58,783 nt of DNA, taken from assembly GCA_032128215.1 (NCBI GenBank), contig JAQBHA010000016.1:1-58783 (forward strand). Reading direction: 5' to 3'. The DNA comes from Nitrososphaerota archaeon. GTDB lineage: Archaea; Thermoproteota; Nitrososphaeria; Nitrososphaerales; Nitrosopumilaceae. The notes under the pieces were generated by a model. That model searched no databases. It saw only the letters and a program-made list of their open reading frames with translations, and was not told the DNA's origin. Within the stretch, counting starts at the first letter, position 1, and every line of letters begins with the position of its first letter. Shown piece by piece: positions 45,468-54,150 of the stretch. The translations under genes and the position numbers were made by a program.

Positions 45468-46604
45468 TTAAGAATTTATACTAATTTGTATCTGTCTTTT
45501 GAATTCATCCCAGGCAGGTTTTGGATTACCATCTGTATCAATTAAACCAGCATTGCAAATGTAATGACTTAGTCGCTCAATCACATACTCACTACTCCCA
45601 ATACCTGAAGGATCACCTATGCTTATTGATCCTTCAATAGTATTTGGAATAATATCACATGTTCCCTCTGGTTTATCGTATTGTCTATACCAAGTAACAA
45701 ATTCTAGTTTTGATTCATTATCTCTGAAAAAATCAAATACTGTTTTAACAAAATCTGTTTGATCTTTTTGATTGCCATTTACAAAATCAGCTGTACTCCA
45801 ACTTATCTCAAAAATCCCCACATTTTTATCTGGAATCATTTCTATAATTTTTTCTAGATCAGCTCTTGCCGCTTGAGGATTTTTGTTTATTTCATTAAGA
45901 GAGTCTACTGGAAAATAACTAAAAGCAACAAAATCGCCATCACCAAGTTCTTTAACTATATGACTAAGATTTTTGTTAATTACTCCATGTAATGAAAATA
46001 CATTACCAAATTTTACATCAGAGTGTTTTTCTTTTAAAGAGCCATATACTACATCAAAAAGTTCTTTGTATACTGGAATATTTTCTTCAGAGTATCTGAA
46101 ATATTCTTCTGCATTTCCTGCAATAATAACAGAGTCTATGTTGTCATAGCGTGTAAGTATATCATCAAGAACTTTGATAAGATTGTCTTCTGAAATTGAA
46201 TTCAAGCTTGGTCTTCCTATCCAATTTGGAAATGGGCCTAACGTTTTTCCATTAATTATGGAAAAGTAAAGGGTTACTTTAAGATCATTTTGTTTGTTGA
46301 AGTCCATCCAGAGATCAGATTGTCTCCAATCATAATTTCCTTTTTCAGGTTCAATTAAATTCCAAAAAAGATAGAGATTAGTTCTACCAATCCCTGTAGA
46401 AGAAGCTTGCGCGTAATAGTTTTTTAAATCGTCAAGAGTGTTTTTGTTTGATGAAGGATTAATGATCAGACCAAGCTTTTCATTATGAGATGAAGATTGT
46501 ATAAAACCAACATCTGGTGAAAATAAAAATGCAGAAACAATTGCCACTATAACGACTGTAGCAATCATTACTCCAATTATTTTTTTATCCACAAGTGATG
46601 CCAA
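45468..46604 (-). CDS. membrane-anchored or secreted TIM-barrel glycoside-hydrolase-like protein
   Basis: 378 aa with an N-terminal TM helix. The segment 'LFWNLIEPEKGNYDWRQSD' resembles the 'W..IEP..G.YDW' motif of clan GH-A enzymes. The assignment is tentative. Confidence 0.5.
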   Translation of the reverse strand: MASLVDKKIIGVMIATVVIVAIVSAFLFSPDVGFIQSSSHNEKLGLIINPSSNKNTLDDLKNYYAQASSTGIGRTNLYLFWNLIEPEKGNYDWRQSDLWMDFNKQNDLKVTLYFSIINGKTLGPFPNWIGRPSLNSISEDNLIKVLDDILTRYDNIDSVIIAGNAEEYFRYSEENIPVYKELFDVVYGSLKEKHSDVKFGNVFSLHGVINKNLSHIVKELGDGDFVAFSYFPVDSLNEINKNPQAARADLEKIIEMIPDKNVGIFEISWSTADFVNGNQKDQTDFVKTVFDFFRDNESKLEFVTWYRQYDKPEGTCDIIPNTIEGSISIGDPSGIGSSEYVIERLSHYICNAGLIDTDGNPKPAWDEFKRQIQISINS

Positions 46605-46816: not shown

Positions 46817-49468
46817 TTAGCCTGATGTACAACCACTAAAGCCACATTCTATACAAAGACTACATCCTTCTACGAATACCAGATTGTTTTTACATGTAGG
46901 ACAAAGATCCTCTTCTTTTTCTTCTTCTATTATCTGTGGGGCGTGAGTTTCTTCTTGAGGTACTATTAGTCGTAATGCATTATCTACTTGTTTTCTTACA
47001 TAGGGATTTGTGATTTTTGTGTTAACATAATCTGTAACAACTTCACTGGGTCTTGTATCAAATATTTTTTTTGCATTGGCACTTGTCATGTGTAAAACTT
47101 GTTCATGCCTAGAACTATCTCTATAAACGGTAATTCCCTTAAGACCCATCTCATGTGCAAGTAGATATGCTGCTTTTACGTCATCAGCAGATACATCATA
47201 TGGCATGTTAATGGTTTTAGCAATTGCATTTCCTATCCAGTCTTGCCAAACTTCTTGAGCACAGAGATGATCAGCCCAATGGATATCCATTGCAGTAACA
47301 AAGATCTTTTGAATCCATTCTGGAATTTCTGGGATGCCTCTAACAGAACCATAGTTATCTGCAACTTTTGCAAGTAGTTCTTCACTGTGAAGTCCATTTT
47401 CTCTTAGAACTTGTTCAAATATTTTATTTGTATAGAAAAATCTACCAACTGTAACTCTCTTTTCAAAGACAAGTGCAAACGTTGGTTCCATACCATTTGA
47501 ACAATCTGCAATCATTGAAAGGGTGCCAGTTGGTGCAACAGTTGTTGTCAACACGTTTCTAATTCCATGTTTTTTAATTTTTGAAATCAATGCATCCCAA
47601 TCGTAAGAATGGTGGTTCTTTGATTTTTCATAATAGCCTGCAATTGGGATTTTTCCTTCTGGAAATTCTGTTTTTGAACACAAAGGAAATTCACCCCTTG
47701 TTTTTGCAAGAGCTACACTTTCTTCCATTGAATAGTAGGTCAGGGCTTCAGATAGTTTGGATTGCATTTCATAACCCTCCTTTGAATTGTATGGGATTCT
47801 TAACTTGTAAAGAAGATCAGCTACCCCCATAACACCAAGACCAATTCTTCGAGACTCTTTAGATGCTACATCTATTTCATGAACTGGGTAATTGTTCACG
47901 TCAATAATATTATCTAAGAATCTAGTTGTCTTTCTAATTGTCTCTTCATATCTTTGCCAATCAAACTCATATTGTCCATCTGCTTTTCGTTTGACAAGGT
48001 TTGCTAAATTGATGGAGCCTAAATTACATGACTCGTATGGATACAAGCTTTGTTCTCCACATGGATTGGTAGCTCGAAGTGGTCCTCCTCTAGCTTTTGC
48101 AAAAACATTGTATTGATTTATTTTATCAAAGAATATCAGTCCAGGTTCTGCACTTTTCCACGCTGACAGGGCAATTAGATCAATTAGTTGATGGGCATTA
48201 ATTTCTCTTATTGGCACTCTACCATTAGGAGAACGTAACATGAACTTTCCATCTTCAGTATTTACAAGTGCATTCCAAAAATCCTCCCCTATACCTACAC
48301 TTACGTTGAAATTCTCAAGAATTCCAGGCTGAGTCTTATTTGTAATGAATTTTTCAACATCCGGATGCCATGCTTCTATAATACCCATATTGGCGCCTCT
48401 TCTTTTCCCCCCCTGTTTGACTACCTCAGTTACGGTGTTTATGATATTCATAAAGGAAACAGGACCTGAAGCAACTCCAGATGTGGAGGCTACAATATCT
48501 CCTTCTTGACGTAAATCTGAATAATTAATTCCTACTCCACCTCCGGATTTGAAAATTAGCGCAGCATCTGATGTTGATTTCATAATTCCTCCCATATCAT
48601 CAGGCATGGCTAATACGAAACATGCAGAAAGCTGTCCCAAGCGTCCACCAGCATTCATCATAGTTGGAGAGTTTGGTAAGAAGATTTGTTCTGTCATTAA
48701 ATTATAATATTCTGAAACTTTATCTGCATAATTATCAAATTTCTTAGCAGCAAGCAGTGTCAAAAGTTCTTTGAAGCTTATTTTCATCTGACTTTTCATT
48801 GCGAGGTCAATGTAGTGATTAATTAAACTTCTAAAGTGCCATTTGTTAAGATAATATTCGCCCAATTTGAATTTGTAATCAAAGTCATTTAGTTTACCTA
48901 GATAACTTCGTGCCTCTTCGACATTCTGTTTTATGCCACCTTCTATTGAAAAGATTGTACTATCACGTAATAGATCACCTATAGCTACAAGAAGAGCAAC
49001 TCTTTCAAACATTTGAGATGGGGATTCAATGATTTCACTTTTATTATTTCTAAAAAGATATCTTGATGCTAAAACTCGCAAACAATTAAGATCAAATTTC
49101 TTTGATACTAGATCGAGGATTTTGAGGTTAAGTACTTTGATCTTATCGTCTCTTACTTTACGGCGTTCGTGTCTATATAGTATATAGGCTTTGGCAATAT
49201 CGCTGAATCCTTTGTCAATCAAAGTAGATTCAACTATATCTTGGATATCTTCAACGCTTGGAGGTGTAGCTGCTGAGAAGCCCTGTTTATACAATTTGGC
49301 AAGTACCCCTTCGGTTAATTGTTCTGCGATGTTACGATCAGATTGACCTGTAGCATCTAATGCTTTAGAAATCGCGTTTGTGATCTTATCTTTGTCAAAG
49401 AAGGTTACTTGTCCGTTTCTTTTTCGGATCTCAGCGATACCACTTTCTATTTGTGAATTTTCAACCAT
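46817..49468 (-). CDS. nrdJ: adenosylcobalamin-dependent ribonucleotide reductase (class II) with an N-terminal ATP-cone
   Basis: 883 aa. Has the ATP-cone 'IRKRNGQVTFFDKDKI', the active site 'NPCGEQSLYPYESCNLGSINL' and the C-terminal Cys cluster 'CPTCKNN...CSLCIECG'. No NrdB-like gene is nearby. Confidence 0.9.
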   Translation of the reverse strand: MVENSQIESGIAEIRKRNGQVTFFDKDKITNAISKALDATGQSDRNIAEQLTEGVLAKLYKQGFSAATPPSVEDIQDIVESTLIDKGFSDIAKAYILYRHERRKVRDDKIKVLNLKILDLVSKKFDLNCLRVLASRYLFRNNKSEIIESPSQMFERVALLVAIGDLLRDSTIFSIEGGIKQNVEEARSYLGKLNDFDYKFKLGEYYLNKWHFRSLINHYIDLAMKSQMKISFKELLTLLAAKKFDNYADKVSEYYNLMTEQIFLPNSPTMMNAGGRLGQLSACFVLAMPDDMGGIMKSTSDAALIFKSGGGVGINYSDLRQEGDIVASTSGVASGPVSFMNIINTVTEVVKQGGKRRGANMGIIEAWHPDVEKFITNKTQPGILENFNVSVGIGEDFWNALVNTEDGKFMLRSPNGRVPIREINAHQLIDLIALSAWKSAEPGLIFFDKINQYNVFAKARGGPLRATNPCGEQSLYPYESCNLGSINLANLVKRKADGQYEFDWQRYEETIRKTTRFLDNIIDVNNYPVHEIDVASKESRRIGLGVMGVADLLYKLRIPYNSKEGYEMQSKLSEALTYYSMEESVALAKTRGEFPLCSKTEFPEGKIPIAGYYEKSKNHHSYDWDALISKIKKHGIRNVLTTTVAPTGTLSMIADCSNGMEPTFALVFEKRVTVGRFFYTNKIFEQVLRENGLHSEELLAKVADNYGSVRGIPEIPEWIQKIFVTAMDIHWADHLCAQEVWQDWIGNAIAKTINMPYDVSADDVKAAYLLAHEMGLKGITVYRDSSRHEQVLHMTSANAKKIFDTRPSEVVTDYVNTKITNPYVRKQVDNALRLIVPQEETHAPQIIEEEKEEDLCPTCKNNLVFVEGCSLCIECGFSGCTSG

Positions 49469-49697
49469 AATAACATCTCCCCCGCGATAGGTAATGAAAC
49501 ATGTGCTTATATCTGCTGTGGCAAAAAAAAATTTATCTAGATCAGATTTAGCTCAACTTATTTTACACTAGTAGTATGAATTTCATACCGGTCTAATTTT
49601 CGTAAGCTAAAACAAAATTAGTAAATTCCTTTTGAAAAATCACTTTAAGTTAGAAAGTTATTTTTATCTTATGAAACTAAGCTTACGAATTTCGTCG

Positions 49698-51800
49698 TTA
49701 GATGATGTATGAAGACTTGCAGTTAGGACATTTGTCTACCAATTTCTCATCTTTCATACCGCAATTCCCACAAATTGGTACCTGTTTGAATGGCTTAAAG
49801 GAGGTAGTTAGATCGGCTGCCTTTTCAATTGTTTTTTTGATTTCAGCAACTTTGGTGTCTCTATCAAACCGAATCTGTGTTAGCAATCCGCCATTAAGGA
49901 TCTTTGCGATTTTATTACATTCAACAATTTTTTCGTTTTTGATTGAAAGTTGAAGAATTTCGGTTGCATCAAATGAAATACCTTCTGAGTAAGGTTTTCC
50001 TTGAAGAGATTGTAAAACAGAATTCTTTCCATATTTCTCTCCATCCAATGTTGCAAATCTTGCAGAGCCTTCACTTTGAATCATGCATATACTAACGTTA
50101 TCTCCAATTTCTTTTCCTTTCTTCTTTGCAACATCTACTGCTGTTTCAATTACTTTATGTAAAATCTCTCTTCCTTCTTTGTTGTCTTCAAATCCTAGAA
50201 TGTTAAAGACGGCTTCATGTAAGCCCACTAGATTAACAATAAGTGTACTAGTACTTCGTTGCATGTATTGAGTATTTCCAGCAAGAATTGGATTTAGACC
50301 TCGTCTTGTCAGATCAGAAATATCTTTCTTTCTTAATGACATTGAAGAAAGAGCTGGCTTCATCAATAGTGCTAATCGTGCTCTAAAGTAAGTTTCATCT
50401 TTGTTTGATTCAAATGCAAGTCGAGGTAGATTAATTGATAGAGATTGGAATTTAATTGATGTTGCTCCTGTGTTTTTTGTATCTTCTCTTAAGATTCCCT
50501 GAGTTGAAGCGCTTCCTTTAGAGAAAATTATTTTTCCACCAAGTGCAATTATTTCTGCTAATACATCAGATGAATCAGTTAATTTTGCTTTTTCGTAATC
50601 AATGATAAGACCAATTTTTGGGATTGGTGTGATTTTCACGTAGTTTTTGTATGCTAGAAGGATTGCTTTTACAATTTTTTGATCGGAACCTAGTTGGATT
50701 ATAAAAGAGACAAGGGTTGGGTTGTGACTATATTGTGATGTTGTAGAAGATATAGCAAAGGCATCGGTTAATTTTTGTTCTAAATCTAATGAATTTTTGG
50801 TATGTTTGACTAATAACTGGGCTAGTCCATCCATTACTACTTCTTGTGATACTTCCTTTGAGATCAAAGAGATTATCATTGAAAGTGCAGAGGTTAGATT
50901 ATCTAGAGTTTTAATTGATGGAATTCTACTTACGCCTAGGGCTTTGCCGCGTAAATCAATTCCATCTTCGATTAATTCTTTTAGATTCACAAAAATTGTA
51001 TCAGGTAGGAGGGACCATACTCCAGGATTTGTAATATGTAGGTCTCCAGACAGGTGAGAATCTGACACATCTTTTGGTAGGGTATTTAATAGAAGGTGTT
51101 CTGCAAACACCGTTTGTCCTGTCTTATACAAGAGACCCTCTGCTCCATTGTCTACATTTTCTACATTTGAAATCATTTCTTTTACCTCAAATACTGGCAT
51201 TCCAAGTCTTGCCAGTTTGTTTCTATATTCTTCGTGACCATGTTCTAAAAGAACAGAGTTTACCATCTCACGAATAAGTGAACCAGTAAGATATGTTGTT
51301 TGATATTTATAAATCCGATTTTCTACTTCTTCTGTAATCTTTTGGGCTAATTCCAAAGGAAGACTTCCTTCACGTACTAAAGATTGAATTATTTTGTGAG
51401 AGTTAAACTCTTCAATTGATTCATGTGAAGTACGAACATACATTTTACCACTTTCTATGATTGAACGTTCTTCAATCTGTCTTGCAAGACTCAAAACTAG
51501 TTTTCCTAGATTTGTAATTGTATAACGCCTTTCTGATCTATTCAGCGCCACAAGTGATTGTCTCAATAATTTTCTCAGATGATAGGCAAATTTTCCGCTT
51601 TCTTTTTTTGACTTAAATCCAGCCAAGGATTTTAATTCAGAATAAGTTAACGGTCCTTTTGAGTTTAGAATTCTTAAAATATCAATTCTATTAGGGCTTG
51701 CCATAACAGAAAAGATCATTCTTACACGTTTTGATGTAGATTGTAGAATTCCTCCTCGCTTTGGTTCCTCTAACTCCTCCTCGCTCATTTCCATATTCAT
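49698..51800 (-). CDS. NrdD (class III RNR)-like protein with an N-terminal winged-helix and ATP-cone-like region; apparently lacks radical-chemistry residues
   Basis: 700 aa.
- wHTH: 'RIDILRILNSKGPLTYSELKSLAG...YHLRKLLRQSLV'.
- ATP-cone-like: 'YVRTSHESIEEFNSHKIIQSL...'.
- NrdD-like motifs: 'HLSGDLHITNPG' and 'SLSINLPRLAFE'.
- C-terminal ribbon: 'CGNCG...CPNCK'. The protein ends 6 aa after the ribbon. Confidence 0.75.
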   Translation of the reverse strand: MNMEMSEEELEEPKRGGILQSTSKRVRMIFSVMASPNRIDILRILNSKGPLTYSELKSLAGFKSKKESGKFAYHLRKLLRQSLVALNRSERRYTITNLGKLVLSLARQIEERSIIESGKMYVRTSHESIEEFNSHKIIQSLVREGSLPLELAQKITEEVENRIYKYQTTYLTGSLIREMVNSVLLEHGHEEYRNKLARLGMPVFEVKEMISNVENVDNGAEGLLYKTGQTVFAEHLLLNTLPKDVSDSHLSGDLHITNPGVWSLLPDTIFVNLKELIEDGIDLRGKALGVSRIPSIKTLDNLTSALSMIISLISKEVSQEVVMDGLAQLLVKHTKNSLDLEQKLTDAFAISSTTSQYSHNPTLVSFIIQLGSDQKIVKAILLAYKNYVKITPIPKIGLIIDYEKAKLTDSSDVLAEIIALGGKIIFSKGSASTQGILREDTKNTGATSIKFQSLSINLPRLAFESNKDETYFRARLALLMKPALSSMSLRKKDISDLTRRGLNPILAGNTQYMQRSTSTLIVNLVGLHEAVFNILGFEDNKEGREILHKVIETAVDVAKKKGKEIGDNVSICMIQSEGSARFATLDGEKYGKNSVLQSLQGKPYSEGISFDATEILQLSIKNEKIVECNKIAKILNGGLLTQIRFDRDTKVAEIKKTIEKAADLTTSFKPFKQVPICGNCGMKDEKLVDKCPNCKSSYII

Positions 51801-51858
51801 GTCTAAAAGATCATGGGGTAATTAAGATTTGTGACGGAATAATGATGTAGTATTTAGA

Positions 51859-52020
51859 TCAGCTTTCTCTTACATCCAATGTAAATTCTGATGTTGAAAG
51901 AGTCTGTCCACATTCTGGACATTTATTGTTGTATGGTCTAATTACATCTTTTACAGACTTTAACATTTTCATGTTGGCGATCTTTTTTCCACATTTACCA
52001 CAAATTATTTCAACGGACAT
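51859..52020 (-). CDS. small zinc-ribbon protein (53 aa, below the ORF-track cutoff)
   Basis: My own translation is MSVEIICGKCGKKIANMKMLKSVKDVIRPYNNKCPECGQTLSTSEFTLDVRES*. It has two CxxC pairs and fills an intergenic gap. Confidence 0.4.
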   Translation of the reverse strand: MSVEIICGKCGKKIANMKMLKSVKDVIRPYNNKCPECGQTLSTSEFTLDVRES

Positions 52021-52090
52021 ATGAACTGGTGAAGTTTAAAATTATTAAAAATCCTTTTTGATTTTATTTCATACTTACGATAAATTAGAT

Positions 52091-52486
52091 TCACTGTTTT
52101 TCGATCAAAATTCCACGATCGTCAAATCCAACAATTTTGGCCTTTGATCCAATTGGAAGATCTGATGGTTTTGAAATTCTAGCCATAAAGCCTGAAATTC
52201 TAAGGTTAGAGTTATCAAGATTAAGTACAACCCAGGCATAGGGGACATATTTTTCAAATCCTGCTGGAGGAACTGTGATGATAGTATATGTTGCAATAGA
52301 ACCTTGGCCCTCAAGAATGACATTTTCAAATTCCTTATTTCCACAATTTTGACAATAATATACAGTCGCTAAATGCAATTCCCCACATTTTTTACATTTT
52401 CTTGCGATTACTTTGCCTAATTTGATTGCATCAATGAATTCCTGTTTGGAAGACAATTTACACACTTTGGAATATATGTACGGCAC
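52091..52486 (-). CDS. DUF35 OB-fold/zinc-ribbon protein (thiolase-associated scaffold)
   Basis: 131 aa. Has a 'CKKCGELHLATVYYCQNCG' rubredoxin-like ribbon followed by an OB-fold. It overlaps the thiolase gene by 29 nt. Confidence 0.8.
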   Translation of the reverse strand: MPYIYSKVCKLSSKQEFIDAIKLGKVIARKCKKCGELHLATVYYCQNCGNKEFENVILEGQGSIATYTIITVPPAGFEKYVPYAWVVLNLDNSNLRISGFMARISKPSDLPIGSKAKIVGFDDRGILIEKQ

Positions 52487-53627
52487 AACTCGCTCCTGTT
52501 GCTCCGAAATTCTGCGTTAAACCAATTTTTGCATCTTTTATTGTTCGTTCACCGGCTTTGCCGGTAAGTTGATCAAATACTTCAACAACTTGTCCCACAC
52601 CTGTAGCGCCAATTGGGTGACCTTTTGATTTTAACCCGCCTGATGGATTAATGGGGATGCCACCATTTCGTGCAGTTTGTCCTTCACGCACACCTTCAAC
52701 ACCCTTACCTTTTTCAAAGAAACCCAAGTCTTCAGTATCAACTATTTCAGCTATAGTAAAACAATCATGAACTTCAGCAAAATCAATATCTTTTGGTGTT
52801 ATTCCTGCCATTTTGTAAGCAGCTTCAGCTGCAATCTTAGTACTTGGTATTGTTGTTAAATGTTCACGTCCTTGAAGTGCAGCCGGTGAACCACCTCTTC
52901 CAGAACCAATGACTCTAATGTAATCTTTAGTATGATCTTTTGCAAATTTTTCACTACATATGATAACAGAACTTGCACCATCTGAAAAAGGACAACAATC
53001 GTAAAGTTTAAGCGGACTTGCAACTACGGCTGAATTCATTACATCGTCAATTGTGATTTTTTTTCTCAAATGCGCTTTTGGATTTAAGAATCCATTATCA
53101 TGATTTTTTACTGCCACCATTGCAAGATCTTCTTCTGTAGCTTTAAACTCTGTAAGATAAGCTCTGGCCATAGATGCAAACAATCCTGGAAAAGATGCAC
53201 CTGCCTGTCCTTCATAAAAAAAATCTGAACAGTAAGAAAAATAAGTTGTAGTCCATTCTGTTCCTGTATGTGTTACTTTTTCTACACCTGTTACTAAAAC
53301 TACATCATAAAAACCAGCAGCAACATTTGCAAATGCTTCTCTAAATGAAACTGATCCACTTCCACATGCAGATTCAATTGACAAGGATGGTCGTTCAGAT
53401 ATTCCAAGATTACTCATGACAACTGGCCCTAGGTGAACTTGTTTATCAGCTACACCAAAAACATTGGAAATGTAACCAGCCTTGATTTCTTTAGGATCAA
53501 TTCCTGCGCTATCAATAGCTTCAATTGATGCTTGAAGAGTAATATCAGAAATACTAGCATCAAGTTTTCCATACTTTGTGCTACCAGCACCTATAACACA
53601 AACATTTTCCACAAAAGACACTGACAA
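52458..53627 (-). CDS. archaeal-type acetyl-CoA C-acetyltransferase (thiolase)
   Basis: 389 aa. Has the catalytic Cys in 'IESACGSGS', plus 'EVHDCFT' and 'NPSGGLKSKGHPIGATG'. Confidence 0.9.
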   Translation of the reverse strand: MSVSFVENVCVIGAGSTKYGKLDASISDITLQASIEAIDSAGIDPKEIKAGYISNVFGVADKQVHLGPVVMSNLGISERPSLSIESACGSGSVSFREAFANVAAGFYDVVLVTGVEKVTHTGTEWTTTYFSYCSDFFYEGQAGASFPGLFASMARAYLTEFKATEEDLAMVAVKNHDNGFLNPKAHLRKKITIDDVMNSAVVASPLKLYDCCPFSDGASSVIICSEKFAKDHTKDYIRVIGSGRGGSPAALQGREHLTTIPSTKIAAEAAYKMAGITPKDIDFAEVHDCFTIAEIVDTEDLGFFEKGKGVEGVREGQTARNGGIPINPSGGLKSKGHPIGATGVGQVVEVFDQLTGKAGERTIKDAKIGLTQNFGATGASCAVHIFQSV

Positions 53628-53679
53628 GAATCCCTATAAAAATTGTTCATACGTTTTCATTAAGCTAGTTCAAACAAAG

Positions 53680-54150
53680 ATGATAATGGTTTTTCAAAAA
53701 AATATAACGCAAATTTTGAAAAGAAAAAATGGGGTTGTTTCAAGAAATATTGTAAAACCAACAAAAACCAAAGTAGTTGTTTTAAAAAACGAAATTAAAC
53801 AATATTTTGATAATAATGGATACCTGTCTTGGTCTTCAAAGAAAAAAATGTATATTATTTTAGGAACAAATTCGCCTCAAAATGGACTTGTACAATGTCC
53901 AGAATGCAAAATAGGGGAATTAATGGTAATTAGATCCTATAAAACAAAAAAGCGCTTCCTTGGATGCTCAAATTATTATAATGGATGTAAGGCCTCATCG
54001 CCTCTTTTACAAAAGGCAAAGTTACGAGCAACAAAGATTCCATGTGGCTTGTGTTCATGGCCAATTATTATATTTCGATATAGTAGAAAGCAAAAATGGA
54101 CTAGACAGTGTTCAAATATCGGATGCCAAAGTAGAAATCTTAAAGTTTGA
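53680..54150 (+). CDS. protein with a topoisomerase-type C4 zinc-finger domain
   Basis: The likely start is ATG 53680. The segment 'CPECKIGELMVIRSYKTKKRFLGCSNYYNGCK' matches the zf-C4_Topoisom pattern, and a second Cys cluster follows. The track extension from 53578 overlaps the thiolase start. Confidence 0.6.
   Translation: MIMVFQKNITQILKRKNGVVSRNIVKPTKTKVVVLKNEIKQYFDNNGYLSWSSKKKMYIILGTNSPQNGLVQCPECKIGELMVIRSYKTKKRFLGCSNYYNGCKASSPLLQKAKLRATKIPCGLCSWPIIIFRYSRKQKWTRQCSNIGCQSRNLKV

Follow-up and report, generated by a model that had tools for sequence, protein, structure and literature searches.

An inactive NrdD paralogue with a winged helix, a candidate regulator of ribonucleotide reductase genes in Thermoproteota

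Directly upstream of nrdJ, the gene for the B12-dependent class II ribonucleotide reductase (RNR), a contig of a Nitrososphaerota archaeon of the Nitrosopumilaceae (58,783 nucleotides, the whole of which was analysed and is referred to here as the window) carries a gene for a 700-amino-acid protein that is a catalytically dead paralogue of the archaeal class III RNR, NrdD. The protein has kept the NrdD-type alpha/beta barrel, the ATP-cone, and the Zn ribbon, has lost every residue of the radical chemistry, and has gained an ArsR-type winged helix-turn-helix (wHTH). That it is a non-catalytic but functional protein is, in our judgement, close to certain. On balance we favor the reading that it descends from an RNR and controls, probably in response to nucleotides, the transcription of RNR and deoxyribonucleoside triphosphate (dNTP) genes, nrdJ among them, in a role like that of NrdR. 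An initial annotation of the locus had proposed an RNR pseudoenzyme serving as a regulator of nrdJ and an analogue of NrdR. The pseudoenzyme part of that proposal is borne out; the regulator part is strengthened by adjacency to RNR genes of two classes, by palindromes upstream of nrdJ, and by a conservation peak over the wHTH and cone, and stands as a candidate reading. Coordinates of the features are given in Table 1.

The open reading frame (ORF) begins with an ATG, and the database gene call begins at Met3, giving 698 amino acids (aa). Its relationship to NrdD is evident from several lines of comparison. The Pfam profile NRDD (PF13597) matches at 95.6 bits (cut-off 26.2), BLASTP against E. 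coli K-12 NrdD returns one alignment spanning query residues 241–694 (E = 3e-10), and the profile of the protein's family finds solved NrdD sequences in the PDB at E = 1.8e-38. The 36 best Foldseek matches of an AlphaFold2 model (mean pLDDT 87.3, pTM 0.77) are all class III RNRs, with E-values down to 1e-22. By homology and by fold, then, the protein belongs to the NrdD alpha/beta barrels, and the NrdD-type landmark strings noted in the initial annotation are all present, as SHLSGDLHITNPG (aa 248–260), the finger-loop remnant (aa 427–440), and SLSINLPRLAFESNKD (aa 453–468). It scores far below the models that define the working enzyme: 92.5 bits for the NrdD equivalog TIGR02487, where 326.35 are required, and likewise far under the cut-offs of the remaining NrdD equivalog models.

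The position of the thiyl-radical Cys (Cys384 in E. coli NrdD, Cys290 in T4) is occupied by Ser430 in the BLASTP alignment or by Ile436 in the family alignment, and the finger loop upstream of NLPRLA is free of Cys. Thr268 takes the place of the second active-site Cys (E. coli Cys175, T4 Cys79) in both alignments. There are six Cys in the whole protein, at 572, 628, and the ribbon positions 677, 680, 691, and 694, which pair with E. coli NrdD Cys644, 647, 662, and 665; none lies ahead of residue 572. The chain ends at residue 700, six residues past Cys694, and in the BLASTP alignment residues 666–712 of E. coli NrdD, with Gly681, are left without a counterpart. A three-frame translation of the downstream spacer contains no R..G[YF] remnant of a glycyl-radical tail, and the 76 orthologous spacers yielded nothing beyond one chance match. 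No NrdG-like ORF was found within the 58.8-kb window, where the sole CxxxCxxC/radical-SAM protein is RlmN-like, and phmmer, run over every six-frame ORF of the window with the E. coli proteins NrdG and NrdD and the NrdD tail as queries, recovered only this gene and the nrdJ cone. The initial description of an apparently dead class III RNR, with a Cys-free finger loop, a C-terminal CxxC-x10-CxxC ribbon holding four of six Cys, a stop six residues later that leaves no 'R..GY' tail, and no adjacent NrdG-type activase, is thus upheld throughout, and neither a catalytic Cys nor a glycyl-radical motif turned up here or in a frame-shifted neighboring ORF.

A word-indexed search gave more than 4,000 homologues, and an exhaustive search of 50%-identity cluster representatives gave 181 clusters at E <= 1e-30; every full-length representative inspected starts with the same wHTH and cone. 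Relatives are carried by at least 598 GTDB species genomes, and none was found on viral contigs. By their source names the family members come from Nitrosopumilaceae, Nitrososphaerales, Conexivisphaerales, Caldarchaeales ('Aigarchaeota'), Bathyarchaeia, Methanomethyliales, and Thermoprotei. The wHTH-NrdD family is therefore Thermoproteota-wide, and the earlier framing of this gene as a peculiarity of Nitrosopumilales does not hold. Source annotations call the members variously 'Anaerobic ribonucleoside-triphosphate reductase', 'helix-turn-helix domain-containing protein', 'ATP cone domain-containing protein', or 'ArsR family transcriptional regulator'. Full-text literature searches, and a reading of papers on RNR evolution, RNRdb, and NrdR, turned up no account of an NrdD family that is inactive or fused to an HTH; its sole trace there is the entry for Nmar_1628 among the regulators of a proteome table. 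The general ideas have precedents, both in enzymes that were recruited as sensors and in regulators of RNR genes that carry an ATP-cone.

The survey of orthologues for the same losses that had been proposed with the initial annotation gave a consistent answer. When the catalytic positions were read in 98 family representatives aligned with E. coli NrdD, the radical-Cys position held I, L, V, Y, S, or T, with few exceptions (e.g., P0179, SGCRL), and the Cys175 column held T, S, E, or N and Cys in none; the Asn of NLPR is present in 97 of 99 family sequences. The rest of the decay is graded. Members of about 750 aa, from Bathyarchaeia and others, retain a vestigial glycyl-radical tail (Y.R...xY.PL..W) in which the Gly is replaced almost everywhere; those of about 700 aa, the clade of the protein described here, end after the ribbon; and those of about 570–600 aa, from Caldarchaeales, are without the ribbon, and their NRDD region is often missed by Pfam. 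Two Bathyarchaeia members (L082, 7001–9310, and L083, 7001–9307) still have a finger-loop Cys (TGCRF) but carry neither a counterpart of Cys175 nor the radical Gly (SRISAKY). Their decay may have been caught halfway, or some function may remain for the Cys.

The Bathyarchaeia also offer a view of where the family came from. In three of their genomes the family gene is directly followed, on the same strand, by a second NRDD gene, the pair being usually accompanied by a glutaredoxin- or thioredoxin-like gene. The neighboring NrdD is intact, with FCQ at the Cys175 position, a QCC finger loop, NLPR, the ribbon, and a WWSR(V/I)TGYYQ tail. A family member and its intact neighbor share 35% identity over 683 aa (E = 6e-127), whereas either of them shares just 23% with E. 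coli NrdD. The family therefore arose when an archaeal NrdD was duplicated and one copy gained a winged helix. Such an origin beside a working NrdD explains the presence of an 'anaerobic RNR' homologue in an aerobe better than any aerobe-specific account. Upstream of the glutaredoxin-nrdD operon these loci share an A/T-rich element (L082, 9311–9399; L083, 9308–9570; L084, 9302–9498). Judged by eye, it reads ATACA(A/G)AATTTTATACAACTT, an ATACA-N7-ATACA/TATA-like arrangement, in L082 and L083, and a related sequence stands in reverse orientation in L084. It may be a promoter or operator; it is not the GAA-N-TTC palindrome described below.

In the N-terminal region, the Pfam families HTH_20 (32.7 bits, cut-off 27) and DUF7347 (40 bits, cut-off 27.6) both match residues 29–103. 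The AlphaFold2 model places helices at residues 24–33, 36–48, 53–60, and 65–80, followed by strands at 84–87 and 92–95 (pLDDT about 88–94); a two-strand wing after the helices is the wHTH topology, so the ArsR-like wHTH of the initial annotation is confirmed. The predicted recognition helix (residues 65–80) holds Tyr73 and His74, both invariant in the family. With 24 bits against a cut-off of 55, the protein falls outside the ArsR/SmtB metalloregulator subfamily NF033788. We consider it probable that the protein binds DNA.

The ATP-cone that follows is matched by PF03477 over residues 120–192 (33.1 bits, cut-off 25.8) and modelled as strands 121–123 and 129–131 and helices 134–145, 149–165, and 173–186. 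In S. coelicolor NrdR the cone residues that matter are Val48, Lys50, Arg51, Glu56, Phe58, and Lys62 (PMC9110341). Val122, Glu130, Phe132, and Lys136 align with four of these, so that the adenine-recognizing Glu and Phe and the second Lys are all present; Phe132 is invariant among family cones and Glu130 nearly so. The initial annotation had recognized the cone and had called its start degenerate. The cone stands. Its variant start, however, recurs in an intact enzyme, the NrdD of locus L084, whose cone begins VRTSK...FEQFD...KI and is followed by the same linker, LSAPLIRELV...YTRLGLPVSDV. The 'VRTS' cone is thus a lineage trait common to a working enzyme rather than a decay peculiar to the 700-aa protein.

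Nor is the gene itself decaying. Across the 80 Nitrosopumilaceae loci compared, the protein is 72–96% identical to the one encoded here, and it is thereby as conserved as the product of the neighboring nrdJ (75–94%); it is under purifying selection and is not a pseudogene. In N. maritimus the B12-dependent RNR is Nmar_1627 (PMC4303638). The proteome of Kraft et al. (bioRxiv 10.1101/2021.04.01.436977, supplementary file 2) lists Nmar_1628 as 'regulatory protein ArsR' (723 aa, 79.8 kDa), detected with 34 peptides at 50.9% coverage and with a log2 change of -0.65 (p about 0.01) in anoxic oxygen production, and its main text counts Nmar_1628 among the down-regulated transcriptional regulators. By its size, its annotation, and its position next to Nmar_1627, this protein can hardly be anything but the orthologue of the one described here.

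Conservation is distributed unevenly along the chain. Expressed as the mean frequency of the commonest residue across the family, it is highest in the ATP-cone (0.63), followed by the wHTH (0.53), the first core helices at residues 197–270 (0.49), and the NLPR strand (0.47), and it is low in the rest of the barrel (0.29–0.31) and in the Zn ribbon (0.31). This is the reverse of the profile of a working enzyme and fits a protein in which the wHTH and cone are the business end on a dimeric scaffold.

The company that the gene keeps points toward RNR. As first noted, it lies on the same strand as nrdJ, with a spacer of exactly 229 nucleotides (nt). In Nitrosopumilaceae the gene order thiolase, DUF35, small Zn ribbon, 700-aa protein gene, nrdJ is kept wherever a locus reaches, and nrdJ follows on the same strand in all 76 loci that extend to it (median spacer about 205 nt), so that the expected synteny with nrdJ is present in orthologues. 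Outside this group about ten distinct proteins were sampled; because the tally sums to eleven, its denominators are approximate. Five of the proteins (P0377, P0289, P0273, P0474, and P0473) have an RNR gene adjacent, which is NrdD in the Bathyarchaeia loci L082, L083, and L084/L085 (the last two representing one protein) and a convergent ATP-cone class I/II-type RNR in L087 and L090 (Conexivisphaerales and a related lineage). Three have another nucleotide-metabolism neighbor, namely dCTP deaminase (L089), pyrB/pyrI with a YfbR-like HD protein (L091), or pyrB (L092), and three have neither (L086 and L093 from Caldarchaeales and the short Methanomethyliales contig L088). The informative point is that the family gene stays beside the RNR locus whichever class of RNR sits there.

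The spacer between the two genes contains two palindromes with a GAA-N-TTC core (sites A and B; Table 1). Site B is the sole perfect match of its palindrome in the window. Among the 76 spacers, most of those from Nitrosopumilus and Nitrosarchaeum have its inner part, TATGAA-N-TTCATA, between -101 and -120 relative to the nrdJ ATG, with invariant arms, a free central base, and no compensatory changes. Allowing one mismatch, 71 matches occur in 0.94 Mb of loci, of which 49 fall in the nrdJ spacer (76 loci) and 4 more occupy the same place on contigs that end short of nrdJ. Site A reads CTGAAATTCGTAA in many orthologues and overlaps or directly follows the stop codon. At least one GAA-N-TTC site is present in 59 of 75 spacers and both in 28 of 75, 100–108 bp apart, and the core is eightfold denser in the spacers (4.7 per kb) than in the rest of the loci (0.59 per kb). 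About 65 nt separate site B from the TATA-like box downstream of it, a position that suits an activator or looping better than simple occlusion of the promoter.

Other signals in and around the spacer were also considered. A search with Rfam at permissive thresholds over 49300–52300 gave one chance-level match only, so that no known riboswitch or other RNA family is present in the spacer, and the palindrome is unlikely to act as an RNA hairpin, given its invariant arms, the lack of compensatory changes, its free center, and its place upstream of the TATA-like box. Half-sites GTATGAAAT and TTCATAT near 52010–52080, candidates for autoregulation, are unsupported as a conserved feature. The spacer also contains a perfect 10-nt inverted repeat (TTCGTAAGCT at 49599–49608 and AGCTTACGAA at 49680–49689, 71 nt between the arms). 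The arm at 49680–49689 runs into site A, and that at 49599–49608 is about 10 nt from site B (about 20 nt between centers).

Table 1. Positions of the NrdD paralogue, its domains and residues, and the elements between it and nrdJ (window coordinates)
Feature	Coordinates	Strand	Basis
Coding sequence of the wHTH / ATP-cone / NrdD-like / Zn-ribbon protein	49698..51800	minus	ORF and profile matches
ArsR-type winged helix-turn-helix, aa 29–103	51492..51716	minus	Pfam HTH_20 and DUF7347 above cut-offs, AlphaFold2 model
ATP-cone, 'VRTS' variant, aa 120–196	51213..51443	minus	Pfam match, conservation, residue mapping
NrdD-type alpha/beta barrel core without radical residues, aa 197–670	49791..51212	minus	Profile, BLASTP, Foldseek
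Thr268, aligned with Cys175 of E. coli NrdD (T4 Cys79)	50997..50999	minus	Alignments
Finger-loop remnant SKGSASTQGILRED, aa 427–440, Cys-free	50481..50522	minus	Alignments
NLPRLA motif, aa 457–462	50415..50432	minus	Alignment; Asn457 in 97/99 family sequences
CxxC-x10-CxxC Zn ribbon, aa 677–694, C-terminal	49719..49772	minus	Sequence, family alignment
Candidate operator site A, palindrome ACGAA-A-TTCGT (ACGAAATTCGT) with GAA-N-TTC core, directly past the stop codon	49685..49695	.	
Candidate operator site B, perfect palindrome GTATGAA-N-TTCATAC, 106–120 nt upstream of the nrdJ ATG	49574..49588	.	
T9 run, likely to serve the upstream gene as an archaeal terminator signal and/or to form the A/T-rich pre-promoter element	49523..49531	minus	
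Conserved putative TATA-like box, ATATAA here and TTATAT in most orthologues, some 40 nt ahead of the nrdJ ATG	49507..49512	minus	
Conserved GGGGGAG Shine-Dalgarno-like motif of nrdJ	49477..49483	minus	
nrdJ, B12-dependent class II RNR with canonical N-terminal ATP-cone, 883 aa, presumed target	46817..49468	minus	TIGR02504, 705.8 bits

If the protein acts as a regulator, it would dimerize through an NrdD-type interface, and the dimer would position two winged helices on the palindromic GAA-N-TTC boxes, sites A and B, upstream of the nrdJ promoter. It would thereby adjust, by activation or by repression, the transcription of the RNR gene and probably that of other dNTP-metabolism genes, in response to adenine nucleotides at the ATP-cone and/or to (d)NTPs in pockets inherited from the enzyme. 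A broader and more speculative form of this proposal, which we regard as possible but doubtful, is that across the largely NrdR-less Thermoproteota the family serves as a master sensor of the dNTP pool, coupling inherited pockets (the ATP-cone and possibly the specificity and substrate sites) to paired GAA-N-TTC boxes, and that in aerobic ammonia oxidizers it outlived the replacement of NrdD by NrdJ.

Several observations weigh against a regulator of nrdJ. In the cone, the phosphate-binding Lys-Arg pair (NrdR Lys50/Arg51) is replaced by Thr124-Ser125, with an invariant Arg123 one position ahead; adenine-nucleotide binding by the 'VRTS' cone, by a different mode, is plausible from the residues kept, and nucleotide sensing would be the least secure part of the proposal. 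Spacers of Nitrosotalea-like and Nitrosopelagicus loci, and some of those of Nitrosotenuis, lack the palindromes, no equivalent GAA-N-TTC motif was seen by eye in the Bathyarchaeia loci, and no TATGAA-N-TTCATA (up to one mismatch) lies upstream of the regulator's own gene. The sites are tied to the 700-aa protein only by their proximity and by the expectation that a dimeric wHTH protein reads a palindrome, and they could belong to another factor. A backbone of pyrBI, the family gene, [RNR], NAC, PUA, HflX, and HTH_3 recurs among the loci, so that the RNR and nucleotide-gene associations are not independent events, and the Caldarchaeales members have no nucleotide-metabolism neighbor. The orthology of Nmar_1628, too, is assigned from size, annotation, and position rather than from sequence.

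The main competing explanation, which we consider improbable, accepts a DNA-binding regulator and gives it targets unrelated to RNR, such as the thiolase/DUF35 mevalonate genes or a global set, the NrdD body being a dimerization scaffold and the position of the gene a relic of the duplication. The recurrent backbone would then account for much of the adjacency, and the Caldarchaeales members, which are the most degenerate, have no RNR neighbor, and are annotated as ArsR regulators, would be readily understood; so would the poorly conserved barrel, the missing Lys-Arg pair, and the presence of thiolase and DUF35 genes upstream in both Nitrosopumilaceae and Methanomethyliales. A mere scaffold is hard to square, however, with an ATP-cone that is the most conserved module of the family. 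The gene has moreover been kept beside RNR though the class differs (NrdD in Bathyarchaeia, NrdJ-type in Nitrosopumilaceae and Conexivisphaerales), and it is in the DNA separating it from nrdJ, rather than ahead of the thiolase operon, that the palindromes occur.

Three further readings dispense with gene regulation. The protein might act on RNR or dNTP metabolism through protein contacts or by sequestering nucleotides, for instance by pairing as an inactive subunit or by buffering nucleotides; its winged helix would then be a protein-interaction module. A heterodimer is conceivable in Bathyarchaeia, where the member is encoded beside its intact paralogue, and the post-cone helices are well conserved (0.49), and the matching region of NrdD probably forms the dimer interface. 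In Nitrosopumilaceae, however, the sole adjacent RNR is the class II NrdJ, which is not a paralogue, and matches above cut-off to DNA-binding ArsR-type families, invariant recognition-helix residues, and candidate palindromic operators make this reading quite unlikely. Less likely again is a non-radical enzymatic activity on nucleotides in what remains of the NrdD active-site scaffold. NrdD motifs do persist (D..H..G.(I/L)H, NLPR, R...D..(Y/F)G, Tyr604, and GG), but the barrel is the least conserved region, the tail and then the ribbon were lost stepwise across clades, and in Caldarchaeales the core is often missed by Pfam NRDD; stepwise loss of modules and a poorly conserved barrel are what a scaffold would show, and not a catalytic site. 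As for a working anaerobic ribonucleoside-triphosphate reductase, as the databases name it from source annotations and the Pfam NRDD match, the sequence refutes it and we give it practically no credence: there is no thiyl Cys, second Cys, or glycyl-radical domain, the score is far under the NrdD equivalog cut-off, and the window holds no NrdG. The Nitrosopumilaceae, besides, are aerobic ammonia oxidizers.

Comparison with known systems helps to place a regulator of this kind. With NrdD (from T4, E. coli, T. maritima, P. copri, S. thermophilus, and archaea) the 700-aa protein shares a homologous barrel, the NLPR strand, and the C-terminal Zn ribbon, as well as an N-terminal ATP-cone followed by the same linker motif, YLTAPLIRE...YRHKLTRLGxPVxDV, and the closest relative of the family is the intact Bathyarchaeia NrdD next door. 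It differs in having neither the two active-site Cys nor the glycyl-radical domain, in its extra winged helix, in the absence of an activase nearby (within the window), and in its poorly conserved barrel. NrdR, the bacterial RNR repressor, resembles it in fusing a DNA-binding module (here predicted) to an ATP-cone, in gene linkage to RNR, and in having palindromic boxes, often two, upstream of the RNR gene; the 700-aa protein would fill the niche left by the rarity of NrdR in archaea. It lacks the NrdR architecture of an N-terminal Zn ribbon plus ATP-cone in about 150 aa, and would be an analogue at most: a winged helix stands in for the Zn ribbon as DNA-binding domain, a whole enzyme-derived body brings it to about 700 aa, the Lys-Arg pair is missing from its cone, and homology is confined to the cone. 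The boxes, too, are laid out differently, with about 100 bp between them and a place ahead of the TATA-like box, not over the start site.

Archaeal wHTH regulators of the ArsR/SmtB and TrmB types share with it an N-terminal HTH_20/HTH_5/DUF7347 wHTH, a long helix, and a ligand-sensing body, and some family members are annotated accordingly, as noted above; here the sensor body would be a dead RNR with its ATP-cone, and the NCBIfam metalloregulator score (24 against 55) sets the protein apart. A precedent for inactive RNR large-subunit homologues with a non-enzymatic role exists in M45/UL45 of betaherpesviruses. These differ in being viral and derived from class I RNR, in acting on host cell-death signalling, and in having no known DNA-binding domain or link to RNR regulation.

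Among the surrounding genes, the stretch 51801–52090, initially taken as intergenic, holds a conserved, unannotated gene for a 53-aa CxxC...CxxC Zn-ribbon protein (MSVEIICGKCGKK...CPECGQ...; 51859–52020, minus strand), about 60 nt upstream of the gene for the 700-aa protein. By tblastn it is found at 66–100% identity in essentially every locus reaching that position, its only Pfam matches are to generic Zn ribbons, below cut-offs, and it may be co-transcribed with the regulator gene. Farther upstream (52091–53627, minus strand), a thiolase gene (389 aa) overlaps one for a DUF35-type OB-fold/Zn-ribbon protein (131 aa). In the Methanomethyliales contig L088 the family member has the same pair upstream of it, with an HMG-CoA synthase-like gene before the two, which implies that this part of the neighborhood is very old. 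A putative gene of 190 aa on the plus strand (53578–54150), with a topoisomerase-type C4 zinc finger under the Pfam cut-off, overlaps two genes on the opposite strand, that for the thiolase at its 5' end and a nitrilase-like (CN hydrolase) gene at its 3' end.

Downstream of nrdJ (45468–46604, minus strand) lies a gene for a 378-aa protein with glycosyl-hydrolase-like Pfam matches, all sub-threshold, which is found at the same position across Nitrosopumilaceae at 47–77% identity. In nrdJ itself, the best NrdJ tblastn match in loci L013–L017, L040, and L080 (Nitrosotenuis-type and others) covers the first 466 or so residues only and the next gene is about 0.4–1 kb farther off than usual, which suggests an insertion, possibly an intein.

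NrdR is rare in archaea (PMC9110341), and for the control of RNR transcription there the wHTH-NrdD family offers a concrete candidate regulator. It occurs in abundant organisms, among them marine and soil ammonia oxidizers and Bathyarchaeia, and has a culturable model in N. maritimus (Nmar_1628). If the proposal is correct, this would be, as far as literature searches show, the first homologue of an RNR catalytic subunit to have been made into a DNA-binding protein. The family also presents a graded pseudoenzyme series, from a tail without its Gly, through loss of the tail and then of the ribbon, to a barely recognizable barrel. Thousands of database entries are mislabelled as anaerobic RNR, which would falsely credit aerobic ammonia oxidizers with class III RNR and a capacity for anaerobic DNA synthesis and bears on the inference of metabolism from metagenomes.

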